Shown here piece after piece: positions 18,829 through 48,686 of a stretch of DNA of 53,908 nt. Each line of letters starts with the position of its first letter. Position 1 is the stretch's first letter. Origin of the DNA: Microcoleaceae cyanobacterium (lineage in GTDB: Bacteria > Cyanobacteriota > Cyanobacteriia > Cyanobacteriales > Microcoleaceae); assembly GCA_051652765.1 (NCBI GenBank), contig JBOFUV010000100.1, forward strand, positions 1 through 53,908, given 5' to 3'. A program made the translations under genes and the position numbers. Under the pieces are notes generated by a model. It made no database searches and had not been told where the DNA came from. It was given only the letters and a program-made list of their open reading frames with translations.

Positions 18829-20637
18829 CTAAGATTTTAGCTGAAACTCATCAAATTTAATGACCGAGGAATCGGGTTTACGAGTATCAAAATAGTAGCT
18901 ACTGACCGTTCCAGAACCCGTGTTCAAAACACTGAATGCAGTAATTTCATTACTGGCAATGTAAGGCTGAGGGGCGTTATCTTTTCCCAGCAAGGGTTGC
19001 AAAGTTGGAACAACAGGTTCGAGTCCATTTGGATCGCCAACAGCACTGTACTCTTCCTGAAATGCGGGCGGAACAAATCGTCTTTTATTCCCTACAAACG
19101 CTCCGTAACTATTACCAACATTCGAAGATTCTAAAAAGTGCATTCCATTCTCACTCACAAACCGATTCCACAGGTGAGAATGCCCAAAATAGACAAGCTG
19201 AACTCCTGCTTTTTCCAACACAGGAATTACATCACGAATGATGTAATCCTCTTTTTTGGGATATTCATAGCGAATCATTTCAACATTGCCGCTAGCATCC
19301 CGATCAATGACTTGAATTGGATTAGTGTACGGGGGAACAATATTATCTCCCAAGGAATGGGGCGGATGATGGAACATCACAATTTTGTATTTTGCCCGCT
19401 GAAATTCAGGGCTACCCAGCTCCTTTTGCAGCCAATTATATTGTTCACTTCCTGTTTGAATGGGTTCAAAAATATGTTGGCCATAACCCCAATTTTCAAA
19501 TTTTTTAAAGTCTTGATCTTTTTCGCGATATCTTCCTCTGGCATCCTGTCCTAAACTTGGAACTCGCCAGATATTTGTGATGTATAAAGTCACAAGTCGA
19601 ATATCTCCAAATGTAACCGCGTAGTAATTCTTTCCATCTCCGGGCAGGGTGAAAATTTCGTTGTAAGTCTCCGAATTGAAAGTATTATTTTTCAGCCAGG
19701 TTTGATCGGGTTTGGAAACACTCTTAGGCTTATTGTTTTGTGAGGATTGAGCTTGAGTTTGCAGATACACTTTCTCGGCTAATACTTTAGGATAAGGATC
19801 ATTATATTGCTGATTGAGTCCCGTCTCCATGGAGAACCGTCCCATCACTTCATGGTTGCCAATAGCTGGAAATAGGGGAACATTTTGAATGAGTTCTCCC
19901 CCTTGATAACGAGTTTTTAGTCCTGCTTGCTCCAGTTCGTAACTGGCTCGACCTTGGAGACAAGGAAAAAATGCTCCACCTCGGTAATCATCAAACCATT
20001 CTGAAGCGCGATCGGGAATATTGACTAAATCTCCTGCCAAAAAAATAGCATCAAGCTGATCAATTGTTTCACCCACTTTCTGTAAATTTGCAGCCGTCAT
20101 TGGCATCAGTTGATGATCAGAAGTGAGCAGAATTTTTAAGGGGACTCCGGGTTGAGGTTTCGGAGCCAAAGTAAAGGTTTTGCTATTAATTTTTTGACCC
20201 GTTTCCGTCACACTTAAAACTTGATAAGGAACCCGATTTCCTGGCCTGAGTCCCTGAATTTCTGCTTCATGTCTCCAAACCTCTCGGATTACAGGTTTCG
20301 AGTAGATTTTATTTTCTTTTGTTTGGGCTCCAATTTTTGAATCTTGATCTTCCCGAGTGCGACTCAGCTTACTCGTGGTTGCTGAAACTGTTTGATCTAG
20401 ATTTTCACCATAGGCAACTGTATGTTCAGTACCGGGAAATTCTGTGAACCAAACAACGCGAACAGAGGTTTCTGTTGGCAATTGTAAAAAGGGATCAGTC
20501 AAGAGTTTGGGTTGAGGTAGTTGAGTCATCATCAGGAAAAATAACGTTGCAATAACTAAAATTAAAACCCCAAAAACCCAAGGGTTCCGAGGCGAATTGG
20601 ATGAACCTTGAGGCAACTCAAATGGGACTATGTCCAT
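18829..20637 (-). CDS. Membrane-anchored metallophosphoesterase (purple acid phosphatase-like)
   Basis: N-terminal TM helix, an FN3-like region, and SDHQ, GDLVN, GNHE and GHSH motifs. Confidence 0.9.
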   Translation of the reverse strand: MDIVPFELPQGSSNSPRNPWVFGVLILVIATLFFLMMTQLPQPKLLTDPFLQLPTETSVRVVWFTEFPGTEHTVAYGENLDQTVSATTSKLSRTREDQDSKIGAQTKENKIYSKPVIREVWRHEAEIQGLRPGNRVPYQVLSVTETGQKINSKTFTLAPKPQPGVPLKILLTSDHQLMPMTAANLQKVGETIDQLDAIFLAGDLVNIPDRASEWFDDYRGGAFFPCLQGRASYELEQAGLKTRYQGGELIQNVPLFPAIGNHEVMGRFSMETGLNQQYNDPYPKVLAEKVYLQTQAQSSQNNKPKSVSKPDQTWLKNNTFNSETYNEIFTLPGDGKNYYAVTFGDIRLVTLYITNIWRVPSLGQDARGRYREKDQDFKKFENWGYGQHIFEPIQTGSEQYNWLQKELGSPEFQRAKYKIVMFHHPPHSLGDNIVPPYTNPIQVIDRDASGNVEMIRYEYPKKEDYIIRDVIPVLEKAGVQLVYFGHSHLWNRFVSENGMHFLESSNVGNSYGAFVGNKRRFVPPAFQEEYSAVGDPNGLEPVVPTLQPLLGKDNAPQPYIASNEITAFSVLNTGSGTVSSYYFDTRKPDSSVIKFDEFQLKS

Positions 20638-20762: not shown

Positions 20763-20858
20763 AACTTGGATAAACTTGAAACTGCAACTGCTCGTCGATG
20801 TCAAGCTTTGCTCAAACAGGCTGAACTATTCGAAGGGTTGACAAATTTCTACTGGTAA
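20763..20858 (+). mobile_element. Probable IS630-family transposase C-terminal remnant
   Basis: Hand translation NLDKLETATARRCQALLKQAELFEGLTNFYW* resembles cyanobacterial IS630 transposase ends (recalled pattern LDELE...RC..L......I.GLT.FHWW); no start codon. Confidence 0.5.
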
Positions 20859-21014
20859 GACGGAGTCCATAGGAAATTAACTAGATTTATTGCCAACTCT
20901 CTTTTCCTTGAGTCCTTCACCCTAGAATATAATTTGAGAAGCCATTAAGGAGGTGAACCAGATTGGCTACTCCTTAGTTTACCTATCTTAAGCCAATTTT
21001 TTAAAGGATGACTG

Positions 21015-22082
21015 ATGACCATTACCCCAAGAGGTATGCCGATCAGTGAAGCATATCGTCTTTATAGGAGTGAGAAGCTTCTCGTAAATCGCCGATACCA
21101 AAGGAAGTTGGTCTGGACTCAAACTGAGAAAGTGAAGCTTGTAGACAGTATATTAAAGGGCTACCCAATCCCGTTGATTCTCCTTGCTTCACGGCCTCAA
21201 GTCCATGAATCCGGCGTTTACGAGATCATGGATGGTATGCAAAGATTCAATGCTATATTTACTTTTATTGAGAACATTTTTCCACTAGATGATGGGCGCT
21301 ATTTTGATATTCAACATTTTTCTTATGCCAAGGAATTGCTAGAAAAAGGTCTTATCCAGAAGATAGATAGTCATCAACCTCAGCTATCCCTAGCAGAGTG
21401 TGCGAGGATTATCGACTATCAGCTAGCTGTTACTACTTATCCAGCAGCAACAGAAGAGGAAATTACAGATGTTTTTGGGCGAATTAATTCAAATGGCAAG
21501 CAACTCAGCTTTCAGGAGAGACGGCAAGCTGGAGTTGTAACTCCTTTCTCAGAAACTGTCAGGAAAATTGCTTCTGAGTTACGAGGTGATTCCTCTAAAG
21601 AACTAATGCTATTAGTAAATATGCCTGAGATCAGTATTGATTCTAAACAAAACCACCATGGGTATGGGTTAAGGGCAGAAGATACCTTATGGTGTAAACA
21701 AGGGATTCTTCACATATCTCAATTAAGAGATAGCGAAGACGAACAGATGATTGCTGATCTTTGTGCTTCTATTTTACTTGGTGAACCTTTAGCATATAGC
21801 GGCGAACTATTAGACAAGCTGTACGATTCAAATACATCTGAATTTGAAAAGCTTGAAAATGCGCTTTCACGTTACACGACTGACCGCTTAATGCACGAGG
21901 TGAAGACAACCTTTTCCGTGTTGCGAGAAATTGTCGAGTCCTATAGTGACCAGCAAAATACCTTACGCCGAATAGTTCATCCTAATGCTGGAGGCAATCC
22001 TATTAAAACTGCTTTTTATGCCATTTTTATGGCTTTCTTTGATTTAATCGTACGTCAGGAAAGAACTCCTATTGATCCATAG
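21015..22082 (+). CDS. DUF262 (GmrS/ParB-like) domain protein; N-terminal part of an interrupted fusion
   Basis: YQRKLVW, DSILKGYPIP, DGMQR and FGRINSNGKQLS DUF262 motifs; ends at a TAG that is in frame with the next ORF. Confidence 0.88.
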   Translation: MTITPRGMPISEAYRLYRSEKLLVNRRYQRKLVWTQTEKVKLVDSILKGYPIPLILLASRPQVHESGVYEIMDGMQRFNAIFTFIENIFPLDDGRYFDIQHFSYAKELLEKGLIQKIDSHQPQLSLAECARIIDYQLAVTTYPAATEEEITDVFGRINSNGKQLSFQERRQAGVVTPFSETVRKIASELRGDSSKELMLLVNMPEISIDSKQNHHGYGLRAEDTLWCKQGILHISQLRDSEDEQMIADLCASILLGEPLAYSGELLDKLYDSNTSEFEKLENALSRYTTDRLMHEVKTTFSVLREIVESYSDQQNTLRRIVHPNAGGNPIKTAFYAIFMAFFDLIVRQERTPIDP

Positions 22083-22088
22083 GGAATT

Positions 22089-22814
22089 ATGGAGGCGCTA
22101 TCCGATGTGCATGGAAGCCTTAAGCAAACCTCAAAAGCTGTTAATGTTAAGGATAGAAAAAATAATGTTAACAAAATTAAAGGACTTGTAGACGAATATT
22201 TTGTCAAGAAAGAACCTCCTGTTCTTAGGCATGGTCCTGGTCTAGCATTGGATTTGGAGAACTCAATAAGGCGATCCTTGATAGAAACATCTCGCTACGA
22301 GTGTAAGCAGGGATTACTAAGCCTTTCAAACCAAAGAGATTTAGATCAAGAACTTCTACAAAGAATACTTCAGACAATTTGCGGCATTGCCAACTCAGGG
22401 CCTGACGGAGATGGGTATCTATTCATTGGCGTTGCAGATAAAGAAAAAGATGCTGAAAGAGTAAAGATGATCGATCAGGTTGAACCATATGAAATAAATG
22501 GCAGATATATCGTTGGTGTTGACAGAGAAGCAAAGGCACTTGGTATTGATCTTGAGCAATATACTGATATTTTACTTAATTCAATTAGAAATTCAGAGCT
22601 TTCTGATCCTCTTAAGACTCAGATCTTAGCAAAATTTGACACCATACAAATAACAAAGGCCCATCAAGTATTTTCAGTTATTCGAATAACCATACTTGCA
22701 CAAGTCGGAATATCTTATTTGGGAGATGATGCTTTTGTTCGGAGTGGATCGTCTACAAAGAAAGCAACAGCTAAAGAGATAGCGTCTATATGCGAGTTAT
22801 TCAGGCGCTCATGA
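22089..22814 (+). CDS. Schlafen/AlbA_2 domain; C-terminal part of an interrupted fusion
   Basis: IETSRYECKQG (E-x4-ExK), ICGIANSG...YLFIGVAD and FVRSGSST AlbA_2 motifs; same frame as 21015. Confidence 0.8.
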   Translation: MEALSDVHGSLKQTSKAVNVKDRKNNVNKIKGLVDEYFVKKEPPVLRHGPGLALDLENSIRRSLIETSRYECKQGLLSLSNQRDLDQELLQRILQTICGIANSGPDGDGYLFIGVADKEKDAERVKMIDQVEPYEINGRYIVGVDREAKALGIDLEQYTDILLNSIRNSELSDPLKTQILAKFDTIQITKAHQVFSVIRITILAQVGISYLGDDAFVRSGSSTKKATAKEIASICELFRRS

Positions 22815-22853
22815 AATTTTTGAATTGCTACAACTTCTTCAATTTGCCTACTT

Positions 22854-25049
22854 ATGTCGATAGAATCAAACTTTGACATTGCATTTACTGCCAGGTTGGC
22901 TTTGCGTGAAAAGCAAATTCAGCAGAATTATCGACCTATCATTGCTGTTCACAAATGGTTTGCCCGCCGCCCCGGCACTCTCTTCCGCAGCCTCATCCTC
23001 TCTGAATTTACGGATCAGCCTGTTGAGCAAACCTACTACTGCACAAACAACTTTGAGGGGCTAACCATTGCCGATCCTTTTATGGGCGGTGGGACACCAC
23101 TTCTCGAAGCCAACCGCTTGGGTTGTAATGTGATTGGTACTGATATTAATCCAATGGCTACATGGATTGTTCAGGAAGAAATCTCTGAGCTTGACCTCGC
23201 GATTTATTTAAAAACTGCCGACTATCTCCTCGCGTATCTTGAAAGCAAAATTGGCAGACTCTACAAAACTCGTTGCCTCATAACAGGACAAGATGTGGAG
23301 GTTAAGTATTTTCTCTGGGTCAAAACTGGAACTTGTAAAGCTTGTAACCAAAGTTTCGATCTTTTCCCTGGATATATTCTTGCCAAAGATGTGCGATACC
23401 CGACCTATGTTCTGGTTTGCTCTGCCTGTGGCCATCTAAACGAGGTTATAGATCCAGCTAACCCAGGTTCTTGTACCTGTGGTGCGGCTCTCACCGTCAA
23501 AGGGCCAGTCAAGCGTAGCCAGTGCGCTTGCCCCCACTGTGGACAAATTAATAGGGCTCCGTTTCATGGAGATGGGCCACCCTCACATCGTCTATTTGCG
23601 ATTGAATACTATAATCCTAATTTGAAGGAGCGATCGCGCCGTCTCTTCAAAAAGCCTGATGCCGATGACATTGCTCGGGTAGAAAAGGCTCAGTGTCTCT
23701 GGTCGGGTCTGTCCCCCTCTTATGTACCTGAAGATGTCATTCCTGAGGGGGATGAAACCAATCGATTACATCGCTGGGGTTACAAGCGCTTTTGCGAACT
23801 TTTCAACCCTCGTCAGTTGCTAGCGTTAGAAACGGCGGCAGGTTTTATAGCCCGGATTAAAGACCACCGTCTCCGCCGTGCTTTCGCAACTAACTTCTCC
23901 GACCTGTTGCGTTATCAAAATATGCTGTGCCGCTACGACACTATGGCGCTTAAATCCCTAGATATCTTCTCAATCCATGGCTTTCCTGTTGGTTACGTCC
24001 AAGTTGAATCTAACTTTCTTGGCATTAGAAAAGACAATAGTCTTCCGGTAGGTTCTGGAGGCTGGATTAACATCATTGAGAAATACTCAAAAGCTAAGCA
24101 ATATTGCGCTACACCGTTCGAGGTTACGTTTAAAGGCAAGAAGAAACTGACTGTAAAAATTGACGGTGAATGGATTGGAGAGCATAACCCAAAGGGTTCC
24201 ACAATCCATCCTCGAACCGTAGACCTTCGCTGCGTTTCTGCAACAACCCTTGAATTGCCGACCCACAGCCTGGATGCCGTTTTCACTGATCCACCCTACT
24301 ACGGCATGGTTCAGTATGGAGAGCTGATGCACTTTTGCTACGTATGGCTTCGTAAGCTAATGGGGGCAGACTTTCCAGGACTGAGTCAGGAGACGACTCG
24401 CCACCATGATGAGCTAACGGGTAACAATACTGCGGCACGGGGCATCAATCACTTTGCTGAAGGGCTGGCCCAGGTCTATTCACGCATGGCGGTTGCTCTC
24501 AAGCCTGGTGCCCCTCTTGTATTTACCTACCACCACAACCAACAAGAAGCTTATCTTGCTGTTGCTATGGCCATTCTGGATGCTGGTTTAACCTGTTCTG
24601 CATCTCTACCCTGCCCTGCTGAGATGGGGGGCTCAATTCACATCCATGGAACTAGCTCGTCTATTGTCGATACGGTTTTTGTTTGTCGCCATCATGGCAT
24701 CACCTCTCGTACCGGGCTCTTTGAAAATGCAGAGCAGCTCGCGCAGATAATTAATCGCGAGTTGGAAGAACTGCGTACCGCAGGTATGAAGCCTACTGCT
24801 GGAGACGTGCGCTGTATTGCCTTTGGGCACATCACCCGTATGGCTACCTGGAACCTGCGATCTAGTTGGAATTCTACTCAACCTACGAGCCAGAAGCTTG
24901 AGACGATTTGGACTGCGATGGATGTAATTGCCACCATTCGTGACTTAAGCATTGAGCTTGAGCATCTGAACTCTCCTCAGCAGATCATTAATTTTGATTC
25001 ATTGGCTGTACCAAAAGCTAAGGAGCAACTCAATGCCGTTGCGTTTTGA
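22854..25049 (+). CDS. DUF1156/COG1743-type amino-DNA methyltransferase with Zn-ribbon insert
   Basis: HKWFARR, DPFMGGGT (motif I) and TDPPYY (motif IV); CKAC, CSAC and CPHC Cys pairs. Confidence 0.9.
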   Translation: MSIESNFDIAFTARLALREKQIQQNYRPIIAVHKWFARRPGTLFRSLILSEFTDQPVEQTYYCTNNFEGLTIADPFMGGGTPLLEANRLGCNVIGTDINPMATWIVQEEISELDLAIYLKTADYLLAYLESKIGRLYKTRCLITGQDVEVKYFLWVKTGTCKACNQSFDLFPGYILAKDVRYPTYVLVCSACGHLNEVIDPANPGSCTCGAALTVKGPVKRSQCACPHCGQINRAPFHGDGPPSHRLFAIEYYNPNLKERSRRLFKKPDADDIARVEKAQCLWSGLSPSYVPEDVIPEGDETNRLHRWGYKRFCELFNPRQLLALETAAGFIARIKDHRLRRAFATNFSDLLRYQNMLCRYDTMALKSLDIFSIHGFPVGYVQVESNFLGIRKDNSLPVGSGGWINIIEKYSKAKQYCATPFEVTFKGKKKLTVKIDGEWIGEHNPKGSTIHPRTVDLRCVSATTLELPTHSLDAVFTDPPYYGMVQYGELMHFCYVWLRKLMGADFPGLSQETTRHHDELTGNNTAARGINHFAEGLAQVYSRMAVALKPGAPLVFTYHHNQQEAYLAVAMAILDAGLTCSASLPCPAEMGGSIHIHGTSSSIVDTVFVCRHHGITSRTGLFENAEQLAQIINRELEELRTAGMKPTAGDVRCIAFGHITRMATWNLRSSWNSTQPTSQKLETIWTAMDVIATIRDLSIELEHLNSPQQIINFDSLAVPKAKEQLNAVAF

Positions 25050-26052
25050 AGTTGACTACCAAGATCCCACCTTCCCTTTCGATCCTTTGATCGATGAGGT
25101 TTTTTCTGAGCTGAAGTCGAGCTTTTTAGAGATGCCGCGAGGTGATGGATTCATCGACTATAGAATCTTCGAGCAGGGCTATCAGACGCTCAAGCGGGCA
25201 ACCAGTGCTTTTGAAGTAGTGACACCTGAAACAGTCGAGTCTGCTGTCACAAAAACACCAATTTCGTTAGTTGTATTCCGGGCCATTCTTGGCTTCACGC
25301 CACCGGAGTGGGCTTATATCACCACAGAAATGACTGGGTTTATTGTCGGGCAAGGGGTTGCCCGCTCAATTGATCGCAGGATTCGTCTCCAACCATTAAC
25401 GCCTAAGCCTCTGGGTAATTCGCTGACAGATCAGCGCATCCGAGCCCTGATCAATGCAGGCGTACAAACCCTGCTGGCGGGTGCAAATCATGAAGTACAC
25501 TCTATCCTGCACCGACTCGATAAAGTTGATACTCGTGAAGGACTTCGGAGTCTTCAGCCCATTGCTGATCTTGGTGTACCGTACCCGGTTGTGCTCTATG
25601 AGCGATTTCTCGGTCGCCCCTTTGCCTCTCATCGCGATTCTGTCAGTGAGCTTGTGGGCGAGTTAGTCGAAGGGGCCATTAAGGATATTCTCACCGCTGC
25701 CAAGGTAAGCTTTCGCGAAACCAAACGCGCTGAGAGGATTAATGGTTTCGACCAAGCTCCTGACTTCATAATCCCTGACGAGTTCAATCCGGTAGCGTTG
25801 ATTGAGGCAAAGCTTACCGAAGACGATGGCACTGCTCGTGACAAGGTAGCGCGTGTACAGCGGCTACGTACACTGCGTGATGAAAGTGGCAAACACTATG
25901 ATGTCATTGCCTGCATAGCTGGACGAGGCTTCAAGGTTCGACGTGAGGATATGCGGCGACTCCTAAAAGCGACTGATGGAAAGGTCTTCACGCTTTCCAC
26001 TATGCATTTGCTGATTGATCATACTCGCATTAGAGAGTATCGCGTAAAGTGA
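25033..26052 (+). CDS. Putative restriction endonuclease, PD-(D/E)xK fold
   Basis: APDFIIP...LIEAK catalytic motif; AGGAG at 25021 and ATG 25033, overlapping the MTase 3' end by 17 nt. Confidence 0.78.
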   Translation: MPLRFEVDYQDPTFPFDPLIDEVFSELKSSFLEMPRGDGFIDYRIFEQGYQTLKRATSAFEVVTPETVESAVTKTPISLVVFRAILGFTPPEWAYITTEMTGFIVGQGVARSIDRRIRLQPLTPKPLGNSLTDQRIRALINAGVQTLLAGANHEVHSILHRLDKVDTREGLRSLQPIADLGVPYPVVLYERFLGRPFASHRDSVSELVGELVEGAIKDILTAAKVSFRETKRAERINGFDQAPDFIIPDEFNPVALIEAKLTEDDGTARDKVARVQRLRTLRDESGKHYDVIACIAGRGFKVRREDMRRLLKATDGKVFTLSTMHLLIDHTRIREYRVK

Positions 26053-26082
26053 TATGGTTAGCATGTTGAATCTAACGCACAT

Positions 26083-30082: not shown

Positions 30083-32569
30083 ATGGTAACTCACTTCGAT
30101 TTCATCGTAATTGATACCGCAGGTCAGCCACTTCTCCGGGAACTTGCGATTGTTGATTATCAAGGAAATTTAATTTATGAAGCCTGGACAGATCCCTATT
30201 CTCAGAATCCCGGCACTTGCCCTCAAACTAAGCCCCTTGAGCAGATTATGCAGGATTTTCTGGAGTTGGCTCAATCTAAAACAATCATTTGTCATTATGC
30301 ACGACAAGATATTGAAGTCTTACGGAATACCTTTCGTGCCCTCGGAATTCCTAAACCCCATTTAAAATTTGAATGTAGCTTTGAGCTTGCCCAGCGATAT
30401 TTACCTGAATTTGATCGTCATTTTCTAGAAACCTTAACTCAGGATCTCAATTCCAGGTCAAAAGATCGGTTTTTTAAAAAAGATTCTAGCCATCAAACAA
30501 AATATGAGGCTCTCTTTACCTTTCAACTGTATCGACGCATGATCAATGAACGACTCAAAGCCCGTTTGAAACAACAACCCAATCCATTTGGCTCGAGTCG
30601 AGTGGATACTCCATTTCAAGATCATGTGGACTTTCAAGCCATTTTTGAGAATGAGTTTGAGCGCTTAAAATCTTGCTTGATGGATATTAAGCGAGACCAA
30701 AATCATCAAAGTAAAGGGGCGGTTGTGATTGGGGAACCGGGTTCAGGCAAGACCCATTTAATGATGCGGCTGGCGAAAAGTGTCTTAAAAACCAATCGTT
30801 TACTCTTCATTCGCCAACCGAATAATCCAGATGCAATTTTGTTTCATACTTATAGCAGAATTCTAGAATCCCTGATTCAAAATGTACCAGAGAGCGATCG
30901 CACTCAACTCGAATATCTGCTGGCCAATAGTTTTACTGAAATTATCAAAAAAACCGAAGCTTACTCGACTCCAAAAACTCAGAAAGATGAAAAAATTCTC
31001 AATATCATCCGGGAAGGAAGTCTTAAACTGTTTACAGAATTAGGGCAGGAAGAGACAAAAACCAAGCGAGAATACTGGCAACATATTGAAAAACGGGCGC
31101 AGGATTGGTGGTTGCAAAACTTTTCCTCCGCAGGATACGCCCCAAAAATTTTAAAGGGAATGATTCGGTTTTGCGGCTACACAGATTTTAACCGTCGCCA
31201 AATTATTACCCAATGGCTCGCTTTGAATGATCTTTCTCAAGCAGATCTCGATAAAGTTGGCTTAGAAAGTTGGGGCGAGGATGTGAGCCGAGAAGAAATT
31301 TCTTTGGCTGCTTTAGAGGTTTTTAGTAAGCTTTCTCTTCTGGATGAACCACTAATTATTATTTTCGATCAACTTGAAGGCTTGGGCTTAGCTCATAATG
31401 AACGGTTATTGCGAAGTTTTGGGGAAGGGATTAAGGAAATTTTCACCCACGTTCCCAATAGTTTAATCATTTTAAACTTGTTTCCTGACCGCTGGGAACA
31501 GTTTCAACAAATCTTTGATGGTTCAATTGTAGATCGAGTTTCCCAGTCTCAGATTTTTTTAAACAAACCCTCTAGTCAACAGTTGAAGAAACTTTTAGAA
31601 CTCAAGATACAATCGGTTAGCATCTCCCTTGAAGAATTGTTTGAACCTGGTGAAATTGCAGCTATTTTAGACCAGGCTTCCATTCGAGCAATGTTGAACA
31701 CAGCGGCTGATTATTATCGCTACAAAATTGACGGAATTACCCTTCCCAAACGTTTGAATCCTGCGGCTATTGAACCCAAAATGGAATCAGAAGTTGAAAA
31801 ACAACTTCATCAGTTGATGTTAGATGTTGCCCAAATGAAACAGGTGATCTATCAACTGACCCAACGATTCGATCAGCTTGATCAAGGAACACGCGAAACG
31901 GTTGAATCGATTCCTCTTTTGCCGCCAATTTCTAATGAATTTGTGATCCAGAATCAACGGTCAAGTCCTTTTCAAGATTATGCTTTGCAAGAGACTTTGC
32001 AAGATTATCTCCAGAAACAGCGCAGTCAACTTGCAACGAGTTACAGCCAGCCTCAGATTATCACAGCCAGTGATGACCTAGGGAAATTAACTACGATTTT
32101 AAATGCATTGAGTCGGATTATTTCTCCCCTAAAATTTGAGAGTCTACGATTAGGGATGCGGGTTCTACCTGAACATCTCCGAGTTCAAACTGCAACCCAT
32201 CAATTTGTTGTGGCTTTTCTATATCAAAGTGGAACTCAATTTTTCCATCGAATGAGAAACTTCAATGAATTGGTCAAACAACATCCTGAGATTCAATTCA
32301 ACCTGTGTCGGGACGTTGGGGCAGGATTAATTAGTGCTAAAAAGAGTGCAGAACTTTTAGAGCAGTTTCAAAACACGACCAATGGAACCTTTATTATCAT
32401 CAATCAAGACCAGCGCATGATCTTTGAAATGATCTATCAAATGATTGTTGATATTCAAAATCGGGATTTAGATATCAATTTAGAAGAGGCATTGAACTTT
32501 TTTATCATGATTCATCGAGACTACTGGTTATTTCAAAATCTTACTCTCTTGACCTTGGAGTCATCTTAA
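30083..32569 (+). CDS. Degenerate DEDDh exonuclease domain fused to a P-loop ATPase
   Basis: N-terminal FIVIDTAG...LRELAIVD exonuclease-like fold; Walker A GEPGSGKT; Walker B IIIFDQLE; coiled coil. Confidence 0.8.
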   Translation: MVTHFDFIVIDTAGQPLLRELAIVDYQGNLIYEAWTDPYSQNPGTCPQTKPLEQIMQDFLELAQSKTIICHYARQDIEVLRNTFRALGIPKPHLKFECSFELAQRYLPEFDRHFLETLTQDLNSRSKDRFFKKDSSHQTKYEALFTFQLYRRMINERLKARLKQQPNPFGSSRVDTPFQDHVDFQAIFENEFERLKSCLMDIKRDQNHQSKGAVVIGEPGSGKTHLMMRLAKSVLKTNRLLFIRQPNNPDAILFHTYSRILESLIQNVPESDRTQLEYLLANSFTEIIKKTEAYSTPKTQKDEKILNIIREGSLKLFTELGQEETKTKREYWQHIEKRAQDWWLQNFSSAGYAPKILKGMIRFCGYTDFNRRQIITQWLALNDLSQADLDKVGLESWGEDVSREEISLAALEVFSKLSLLDEPLIIIFDQLEGLGLAHNERLLRSFGEGIKEIFTHVPNSLIILNLFPDRWEQFQQIFDGSIVDRVSQSQIFLNKPSSQQLKKLLELKIQSVSISLEELFEPGEIAAILDQASIRAMLNTAADYYRYKIDGITLPKRLNPAAIEPKMESEVEKQLHQLMLDVAQMKQVIYQLTQRFDQLDQGTRETVESIPLLPPISNEFVIQNQRSSPFQDYALQETLQDYLQKQRSQLATSYSQPQIITASDDLGKLTTILNALSRIISPLKFESLRLGMRVLPEHLRVQTATHQFVVAFLYQSGTQFFHRMRNFNELVKQHPEIQFNLCRDVGAGLISAKKSAELLEQFQNTTNGTFIIINQDQRMIFEMIYQMIVDIQNRDLDINLEEALNFFIMIHRDYWLFQNLTLLTLESS

Positions 32570-48612: not shown

Positions 48613-48686
48613 TGCGCCCGAAGGGACTTGAACCCCCAACCCTTAGTTCCGAAGACTAATGCTCTATCCAATTGAGCTACGGACGC
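48613..48686 (-). tRNA. trnR-UCG: tRNA-Arg (anticodon UCG)
   Basis: GCGTCCG/CGGGCGC acceptor stem plus A73; D-arm GCTCAATTGGATAGAGC; anticodon arm TTAGT-CTTCGGA-ACTAA; T-loop TTCAAGT; CCA not encoded. Confidence 0.93.

Follow-up and report, generated by a model that had tools for sequence, protein, structure and literature searches.

Proteins that join a DUF262 domain to a Schlafen domain have been described as the class pSlfn7, which counts 109 members (Perez Taboada et al. 2026, PMC13056530). One of them, EcoSlfn7 (WP_028985442.1) from Escherichia coli UC4224, is a single gene under its own promoter that lowers T7 plating 538-fold; its protection is significant against T2 to T7 (log protection 2.75 for T7, 1.25 for T5, 1.16 for T4, 1.0 for T2, 0.52 for T3 and 0.41 for T6), and not against lambda, P1 or T1 (PMC13056530). 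DUF262 proteins are also found as second layers beside methylation systems: an island on pEFER combines BREX with BrxU (PMC8565348), and HEC-06/GmrSD genes lie within Hma loci and within restriction-modification (R-M) loci of type I (bioRxiv 2024.01.29.577857). BREX with Schlafen back-ups has been described as well (PMC12839542). Here we report on a three-gene cassette in a stretch of 53,908 nt of DNA from a Microcoleaceae cyanobacterium (contig JBOFUV010000100.1 of assembly GCA_051652765.1, forward strand), the whole of which is termed the window. In the cassette, a broken pSlfn7 gene precedes an intact type II-like methyltransferase-nuclease pair that is widespread although uncatalogued; the modules are of known kinds and their arrangement is lineage-specific. 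We consider it probable that these are two independent defence modules, namely a type II-like R-M pair and a pSlfn7 gene interrupted, and likely inactivated, by a nonsense codon.

A check of open reading frames (ORFs) and sequence in the window recovered three co-oriented plus-strand units at the positions claimed beforehand by a sequence-only reading, which had proposed a layered anti-phage system at this site. The pSlfn7-class gene occupies 21015..22814 (599 codons encoding DUF262, a helical middle domain and a Schlafen domain, with one in-frame TAG). A 39-nt gap (22815-22853) separates it from the methyltransferase gene at 22854..25049, and the nuclease gene at 25033..26052 begins with an ATG at 25033, giving an overlap of 17 nt with the methyltransferase end at 25049. 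The tight packing is as that reading described it, and so are the opposite-strand flanks, a metallophosphoesterase and a hydantoinase/oxoprolinase gene by Pfam match, both on the minus strand.

The first unit is one frame that standard gene calling splits into ORFs of 355 and 241 aa. In Pfam it scores 81.4 bits for GmrSD_N and 42.5 bits for SLFN_AlbA_2, above the respective cut-offs of 33.2 and 25.3 bits, and neither half of the gene matches GmrSD_C/HNH (DUF1524) in Pfam at E<=0.01. The fixed residues of QRxxxW, DGxQR, FxxxN and E424-x4-E429-x-K431 are invariant in 119/119 homologues and in EcoSlfn7. DGxQR (D73-R77; 21231..21245, plus strand) is the predicted nucleotide-binding site, a role taken from PMC12065111, and the Schlafen catalytic motif, as defined in PMC13056530, lies 3' of the stop at 22284..22307 on the plus strand. 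Domain matches and motifs therefore confirm the earlier proposal that DUF262 is joined here to a Schlafen domain with an intact E-x4-ExK motif and no DUF1524/HNH. Set against the type IV restriction enzymes GmrSD and BrxU, the cassette protein has a DUF262 domain with all three of their motifs and lacks the C-terminal DUF1524 HNH domain.

Gene 1 belongs to the published pSlfn7 class, because it is 41% identical to EcoSlfn7 over 587 residues, the two proteins draw the same three top PADLOC cross-hits, and the homologue at locus L057 (51% identical to gene 1, in NZ_CP089312.1) is a listed pSlfn7 member. Gene 1 and EcoSlfn7 also agree in domain order, length class (599 vs 589 aa) and all motif residues. 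They differ in setting: EcoSlfn7 stands alone in a P2-type prophage, between replication and portal genes and without the methylase-nuclease pair, whereas the window copy heads an operon-like cassette and has a premature stop. Hence the window gene shows the one-frame fusion, the Ex4(E/D)xK motif and the full-length homology of the class, without an intact frame. The fusion itself, which the sequence-only reading did not recognise as a named system, is thus not new (PMC13056530), and the proven anti-phage activity of EcoSlfn7 (PMC13056530) bears out the view of it as a defence gene. For the cassette as a set of three genes no description was found; our literature survey, which covered few subscription papers, returned no account of it or of a pSlfn7 mechanism.

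Among 7,998 scored candidates there were 2,316 homologues of gene 1, those listed being mostly 590-600 aa with both domains, and the full-length ones are single proteins carrying both. The closest homologues suggest a cyanobacterial host. A structure model of one intact homologue, P0008 (predicted local distance difference test, pLDDT, 89.6), shows the middle domain to be helical and the part after it to have a Schlafen-type fold; its fold matches, at modest E-values, are led by BrxU, with AlbA_2, Schlafen and SAMD9 domains next. The PADLOC profiles that best fit the N-terminal part of gene 1 are Menshen NsnA and PD-T4-2A, which likewise combine DUF262 with a helical domain; unlike those systems, the cassette has neither an NsnB ATPase nor another such partner gene, and the effector is fused. 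A phage collection yielded nine partial DUF262 matches and no full-length pSlfn7.

The premature TAG of the window copy falls at codon 356 (22080..22082, plus strand), about 50 residues before the Schlafen domain by model-based domain edges. The sequence-only reading had named this stop solely where it proposed checks. The closest relative, which is 90% alike and comes from a rock metagenome (run X1), has C at 22080 and hence CAG, and the position is a sense codon in all 80 pSlfn7 loci taken from GTDB (the best 80 of 566 found). The simplest reading of these alignments is a recent CAG-to-TAG nonsense mutation. The loss would be recent, because there is no further decay (1 change at 153 near-invariant columns, compared with 0-2 in seven close relatives), because the ratio of nonsynonymous to synonymous substitution rates (dN/dS) of 0.065-0.073 against two intact copies is as low as that between intact copies, and because no stop is conserved at codon 356. 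Accordingly, this pSlfn7 copy is likely dead. The possibilities that codon 356 undergoes programmed read-through, or that the gene is split there as a conserved feature, were considered and rejected, given that the stop is not conserved and no suppressor tRNA was found.

We think it improbable that gene 1 is alive after all, whether through an assembly error, through read-through, or through two halves made separately and reassembled; this alternative concerns only the state of the window copy and is compatible with any functional reading of the cassette. Several features would suit it: the rest of the gene shows no decay, the ATG at 22089 is in frame and lies 6 nt past the stop, and the TAG was called from the assembly and not from strain reads. 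Against it stand the absence of the stop from homologues and of an amber-suppressor anticodon from the 36 tRNAs found, together with the use of TAG to end 675 of the 1,980 long frames in this genome, which marks it as a normal stop. Furthermore, the break lies inside helix 355-361 of the middle domain and not at a domain edge, and broken copies are common in the family: 7/80 other pSlfn7 genes are interrupted by stops or frameshifts elsewhere, none at codon 356 (a count that leaves out L050, whose stop falls at its natural end).

In contrast to gene 1, the two downstream genes look intact as judged from their sequences. The plus-strand methyltransferase (731 aa; FMGGG at residues 76-80, CxxC motifs, DPPY at 479-482) differs at 5/312 near-invariant columns, none of them in these motifs, and the plus-strand nuclease (339 aa; P243-D244, E258-x-K260) at 2/171. 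While the DUF262 and Schlafen labels of the sequence-only reading hold above Pfam cut-offs, its DUF1156 label does not: the matches score 20.1 vs 24 bits in Pfam and 99 vs 1000 in NCBIfam, hence the designation DUF1156-like amino-methyltransferase. From the order FxGxG ... DPPY, its product is probably N6-methyladenine (m6A). Large methylases of this kind are described from BREX-related and Hma systems (PMC12839542), from which the cassette differs in scoring under the cut-off and in having no DUF499 ATPase/helicase partner; indeed, no ATPase or helicase gene lies in the cassette. The label of PD-(D/E)xK nuclease is upheld by motif and fold; searches of Pfam, PADLOC and NCBIfam at E<=0.01 returned nothing for this protein. 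Its model (pLDDT 89.8) has a type II restriction-enzyme-like fold, with a Foldseek E of 4.7e-4 to BstEII and VIA-align Z scores of 10.8 to BstEII (root-mean-square deviation, rmsd, 4.8; 245 aligned), 10.2 to BsoBI (rmsd 4.4; 234 aligned) and 9.4 to PspGI; those of its Atlas look-alikes that have a Pfam family are of DpnII/BanI type. Sequence searches of solved structures with both alignments gave nothing below E 0.05. The nuclease therefore resembles BstEII, BsoBI and the PspGI/EcoRII group in top folds, in its PD...ExK motif and in its fixed pairing with a methyltransferase, and departs from them in sequence (11-15% identity), in belonging to no Pfam, PADLOC or NCBIfam family and in the large DUF1156-like methylase at its side.

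The pairing itself is nearly constant. In the metagenome loci of the nuclease (best 80 of 208, of which 69 have room for the methylase and 37 for pSlfn7), the methylase accompanies it in 68 of the 69, and the methylase-nuclease family, which is highly conserved, gave 6,085 matches among 8,000 scored candidates. Separate paired genes, intact methyltransferase motifs and a PD-(D/E)xK fold are the features of type II R-M, and the pair is, on this sequence evidence, likely a type II-like R-M system, in agreement with the earlier view of the two genes. A search for the nuclease in 400 sampled genomes of the phylum returned none, a draw that missed both known carriers and so shows rarity only; plasmids gave one distant nuclease match (30%). 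A scan for recognition-site avoidance over 47 pairs detected general palindrome depletion alone.

The three genes form a genuine cassette that one lineage has kept for a long time. A single blastn block of 5,070-5,088 nt, 75-79% identical, is common to the window (20995..26070, plus strand) and loci L016 and L017, three unrelated sites with differing flanks. In run X1, overlapping contigs cover 20995-26070 at even depth and continue into unrelated DNA at both ends. Eight further pSlfn7-nuclease pairs were inferred from contigs of the same size, so that the cassette is attested in three genomes, one metagenome and eight inferred contigs. The pSlfn7-linked nucleases all fall in one clade of 17 rows (support 100/97), whose sister group includes four loci with an upstream helix-turn-helix (HTH) gene; besides the linked nucleases, this clade holds four rows on contigs too short to judge and one without a pSlfn7 match. 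The linked pSlfn7 proteins likewise form one clade in a FastTree phylogeny of 51 rows that covered about half of the GTDB loci. Since each set of linked proteins is a single clade, the cassette derives from one joining event, and a single event cannot separate functional coupling from shared mobility. For all three genes dN/dS is 0.04-0.1.

Outside this lineage, pSlfn7 and the pair mostly occur apart. The expectation that the three genes co-occur elsewhere is borne out, in that they recur as one block in L016, L017 and run X1. Of the 80 GTDB loci (62 with room for it), just 2 have the pair, in each case directly downstream of pSlfn7; these are in Nodosilinea PCC 7104 and Leptolyngbya PCC 7375. 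In PCC 7375 the methylase stands between the genes with locus tags Lepto7375DRAFT_6972 and Lepto7375DRAFT_6974. A tblastn search of five R-M queries over the same 80 loci, insensitive to distant methylases, hit only L016, L017 and L081. Conversely, pSlfn7 is present at none of the 80 metagenome nuclease loci. The gene was found in 36/400 other genomes of the order, a different draw from that of the nuclease search in the phylum. By our hand tally of a table in PMC13056530, 6/74 short pSlfn7 genes (the form of gene 1) and 19/35 long ones have type I-III R-M neighbours; lone 'REase09' matches were omitted from this tally as probable self-hits, because that type II REase profile matches EcoSlfn7 itself. 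The class may hold two different systems, short and long. A further arrangement was seen in 18 cyanobacterial loci (L019, L020, L025-L029, L031-L038, L080, L086, L088), in which pSlfn7 lies tail-to-tail with one conserved gene at 38-98 nt, identified as aconitase B (acnB) in three scanned loci; this points to a chromosomal position at which a lone defence gene is stably kept. In L052 (5134-7956; Hymenobacter), pSlfn7 is separated by 44 nt from a gene for Pnkp-type RNA repair on the opposite strand.

The neighbours of the pair vary, comprising an HTH gene, HEC-06/GmrSD, Lamassu, OLD/ABC-type genes, a helicase, a KAP NTPase, TIR and HamA, as identified in the 40 of 183 neighbour ORFs that were scanned. 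Recurrent among them, apart from HEC-06/GmrSD, are Lamassu-type genes (L096, L116, L117, L131), an ABC-ATPase/TOPRIM, OLD-like gene (L105, L154, L157) and an overlapping upstream HTH gene (L099-L101, L105) that may be a controller. Each module therefore appears independent of the other: pSlfn7 because EcoSlfn7 works alone, the pair accompanies it in 2/80 loci and lone copies sit at acnB; the pair because it keeps its methylase in 68/69 loci, has pSlfn7 in 0/80 and varies in its other neighbours. Such stacking has a precedent in BREX and BrxU, each of which acts on its own and against other phages than its partner (PMC8565348). The cassette parallels the BREX-BrxU and HEC-06 islands in packing a methylation system with a second, DUF262 layer, and differs from them in that its first layer has two genes and its DUF262 protein ends in an RNase-type domain without HNH.

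Several observations weigh against two independent layers. Of the 13 assessable nucleases in the cassette clade, 12 are linked to pSlfn7 (8 by same-size contigs alone); pSlfn7 and nuclease identities co-vary (Spearman 0.56, 12 pairs, permutation p 0.0008); and the block has stayed together to dS 1.1-2.2 (one pair saturated). Among 80 metagenome loci, of which 67 have room, HEC-06/GmrSD stands directly beside the pair in 8 that belong to more than one branch, a count without a control family for enrichment; it lies upstream in L110, L121, L127 and L132 and downstream in L115, L133, L147 and L153, the partners forming two groups about 42% alike, with the L110 and L115 copies apparently broken. 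This R-M family thus recruits DUF262 proteins repeatedly. The functions of all cassette proteins are, moreover, predictions, and the TAG is known from the strain's assembly alone. In the accessible parts of PMC13056530, a second tested pSlfn7, EluSlfn7, is almost inactive (significant on T1 alone, and weakly), and tRNA cutting is demonstrated for RorSlfn5, not for pSlfn7.

It is tempting to ask whether, in intact cassettes, pSlfn7 guards the pair in the manner of PrrC, monitoring it or sensing anti-restriction proteins such as DNA mimics and aborting infection through RNase cleavage of tRNA when restriction is blocked. Long co-inheritance, tight packing and the repeated DUF262 partners of the R-M family are what such a guard would lead one to expect. 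T7 is, moreover, the source of Ocr. This DNA mimic triggers PARIS, T3 makes a SAMase (PMC12707154), and the protection by EcoSlfn7 reaches 2.75 log for T7 but falls far below this, at 0.52 log, for T3 (PMC13056530). PrrC-EcoprrI and PARIS, R-M guard tRNases (PMC12707154), likewise place a putative tRNase beside an R-M system; their folds are unrelated to pSlfn7, however, and PrrC lies inside its R-M locus (PMC12707154), whereas the cassette pSlfn7 stands in front. Against the proposal, EcoSlfn7 needs no cognate pair, being active when cloned alone and coming from a prophage without one, 78/80 pSlfn7 loci have no pair, so that the obligate link holds in one clade only, and the pair lacks pSlfn7 in 80/80 metagenome loci; sensor and catalytic motifs are also unchanged in the cassette clade. 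The earlier suggestion that the fusion needs or guards the R-M pair is therefore not sustained, and we regard a guard function of the intact cassette as unlikely.

The sequence-only reading had also put forward the sensing of modified DNA. In one version of this, pSlfn7 would complement the pair as BrxU does, recognising hypermodified phage DNA that escapes restriction and answering with cleavage of RNA, not DNA. The DNA of T2, T4 and T6 carries modified cytosines, whereas that of T7 and T5 is not hypermodified. EcoSlfn7 is active on the former three and strongest on T7, with T5 next (PMC13056530). DUF262 does sense modified DNA in GmrSD and SspE (PMC12065111), BrxU is the top fold match of the P0008 model, and pSlfn7 takes the same upstream slot as HEC-06 does in L110, L121, L127 and L132. 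Nevertheless, the sequence of pSlfn7 has little in common with the GmrSD partners (24% over 99 residues; E 0.004), and its closer PADLOC profile is Menshen NsnA. We consider this account very improbable. More generally, modified bases fit poorly as the main pSlfn7 cue, since the tested homologue is strongest on T7, whose DNA is unmodified, which argues against modified DNA as the main trigger.

Returning to two stacked and independent layers, we can outline how they would operate. In the first layer, the methyltransferase would mark host sites and the nuclease would cut unmarked incoming DNA. In the second, present in intact copies and modelled on EcoSlfn7, RorSlfn5 and the DUF262 literature (PMC12065111), the DUF262 NTPase and the helical, putatively DNA-binding domain would respond to a phage cue for which modified bases are not required; a DNA mimic or an abnormal state of DNA or nucleotides is most likely, with breakdown of host DNA fitting too. 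The NTPase would then switch on the Schlafen domain, leading to tRNA cutting and abortion of the infection. One ancestor of the pair would have gained pSlfn7 in the upstream slot, and the three-gene block would have spread sideways among cyanobacteria, kept since its layers cover different phages. Through a recent CAG-to-TAG change, the window genome would be left with restriction as its only layer.

The cassette genes were not found in the same-genus genomes G001 and G002; no empty site was found, the metallophosphoesterase and oxoprolinase genes not being neighbours in those two genomes. No terminal repeat pair occurs at the cassette ends among the repeats listed, promoter and terminator scans gave no excess over shuffles, and the one Rfam match was a tRNA (48613-48686). 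A stretch of 92 nt shortly before the cassette (20765-20856), perhaps the tail of a mobile element, is 73% alike to a repeat that occurs four times near contig ends in G002. Just past the oxoprolinase gene, 30083-32569 holds an ORF of 828 aa and low GC that weakly matches DEDD exonucleases and AAA/STAND-type proteins and may be one more defence gene. A defence hotspot may lie in front of the metallophosphoesterase (18829-20637 in the window; L021 6069-9794; L183 611-10466), where a separate pSlfn7 (57%) is present in Nodularia and a type I R-M system in G018. Elsewhere, G000:C132 (1916-4863) encodes a second methyltransferase of the cassette's type, distantly related to it (711 aa, 26%), which overlaps a 271-aa upstream ORF, possibly as another two-gene R-M pair.

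Taken together, the finding itself is modest, since the striking fusion is already published and tested and the window copy is broken. The pair, for whose nuclease Pfam, PADLOC and NCBIfam hold no model, may possess an undescribed restriction specificity. If a guard function were true, the R-M family would have recruited DUF262 sensors against anti-restriction several times, as HEC-06 upstream, HEC-06 downstream and pSlfn7; pSlfn7 would thereby gain a trigger, and a ParB-type NTPase together with a Schlafen RNase would make up a PrrC-like guard, open to test in intact natural copies from two cultured cyanobacteria. Whether an adjacent R-M pair alters the trigger of pSlfn7 could be tested directly with the intact cassettes of Nodosilinea PCC 7104 and Leptolyngbya PCC 7375.

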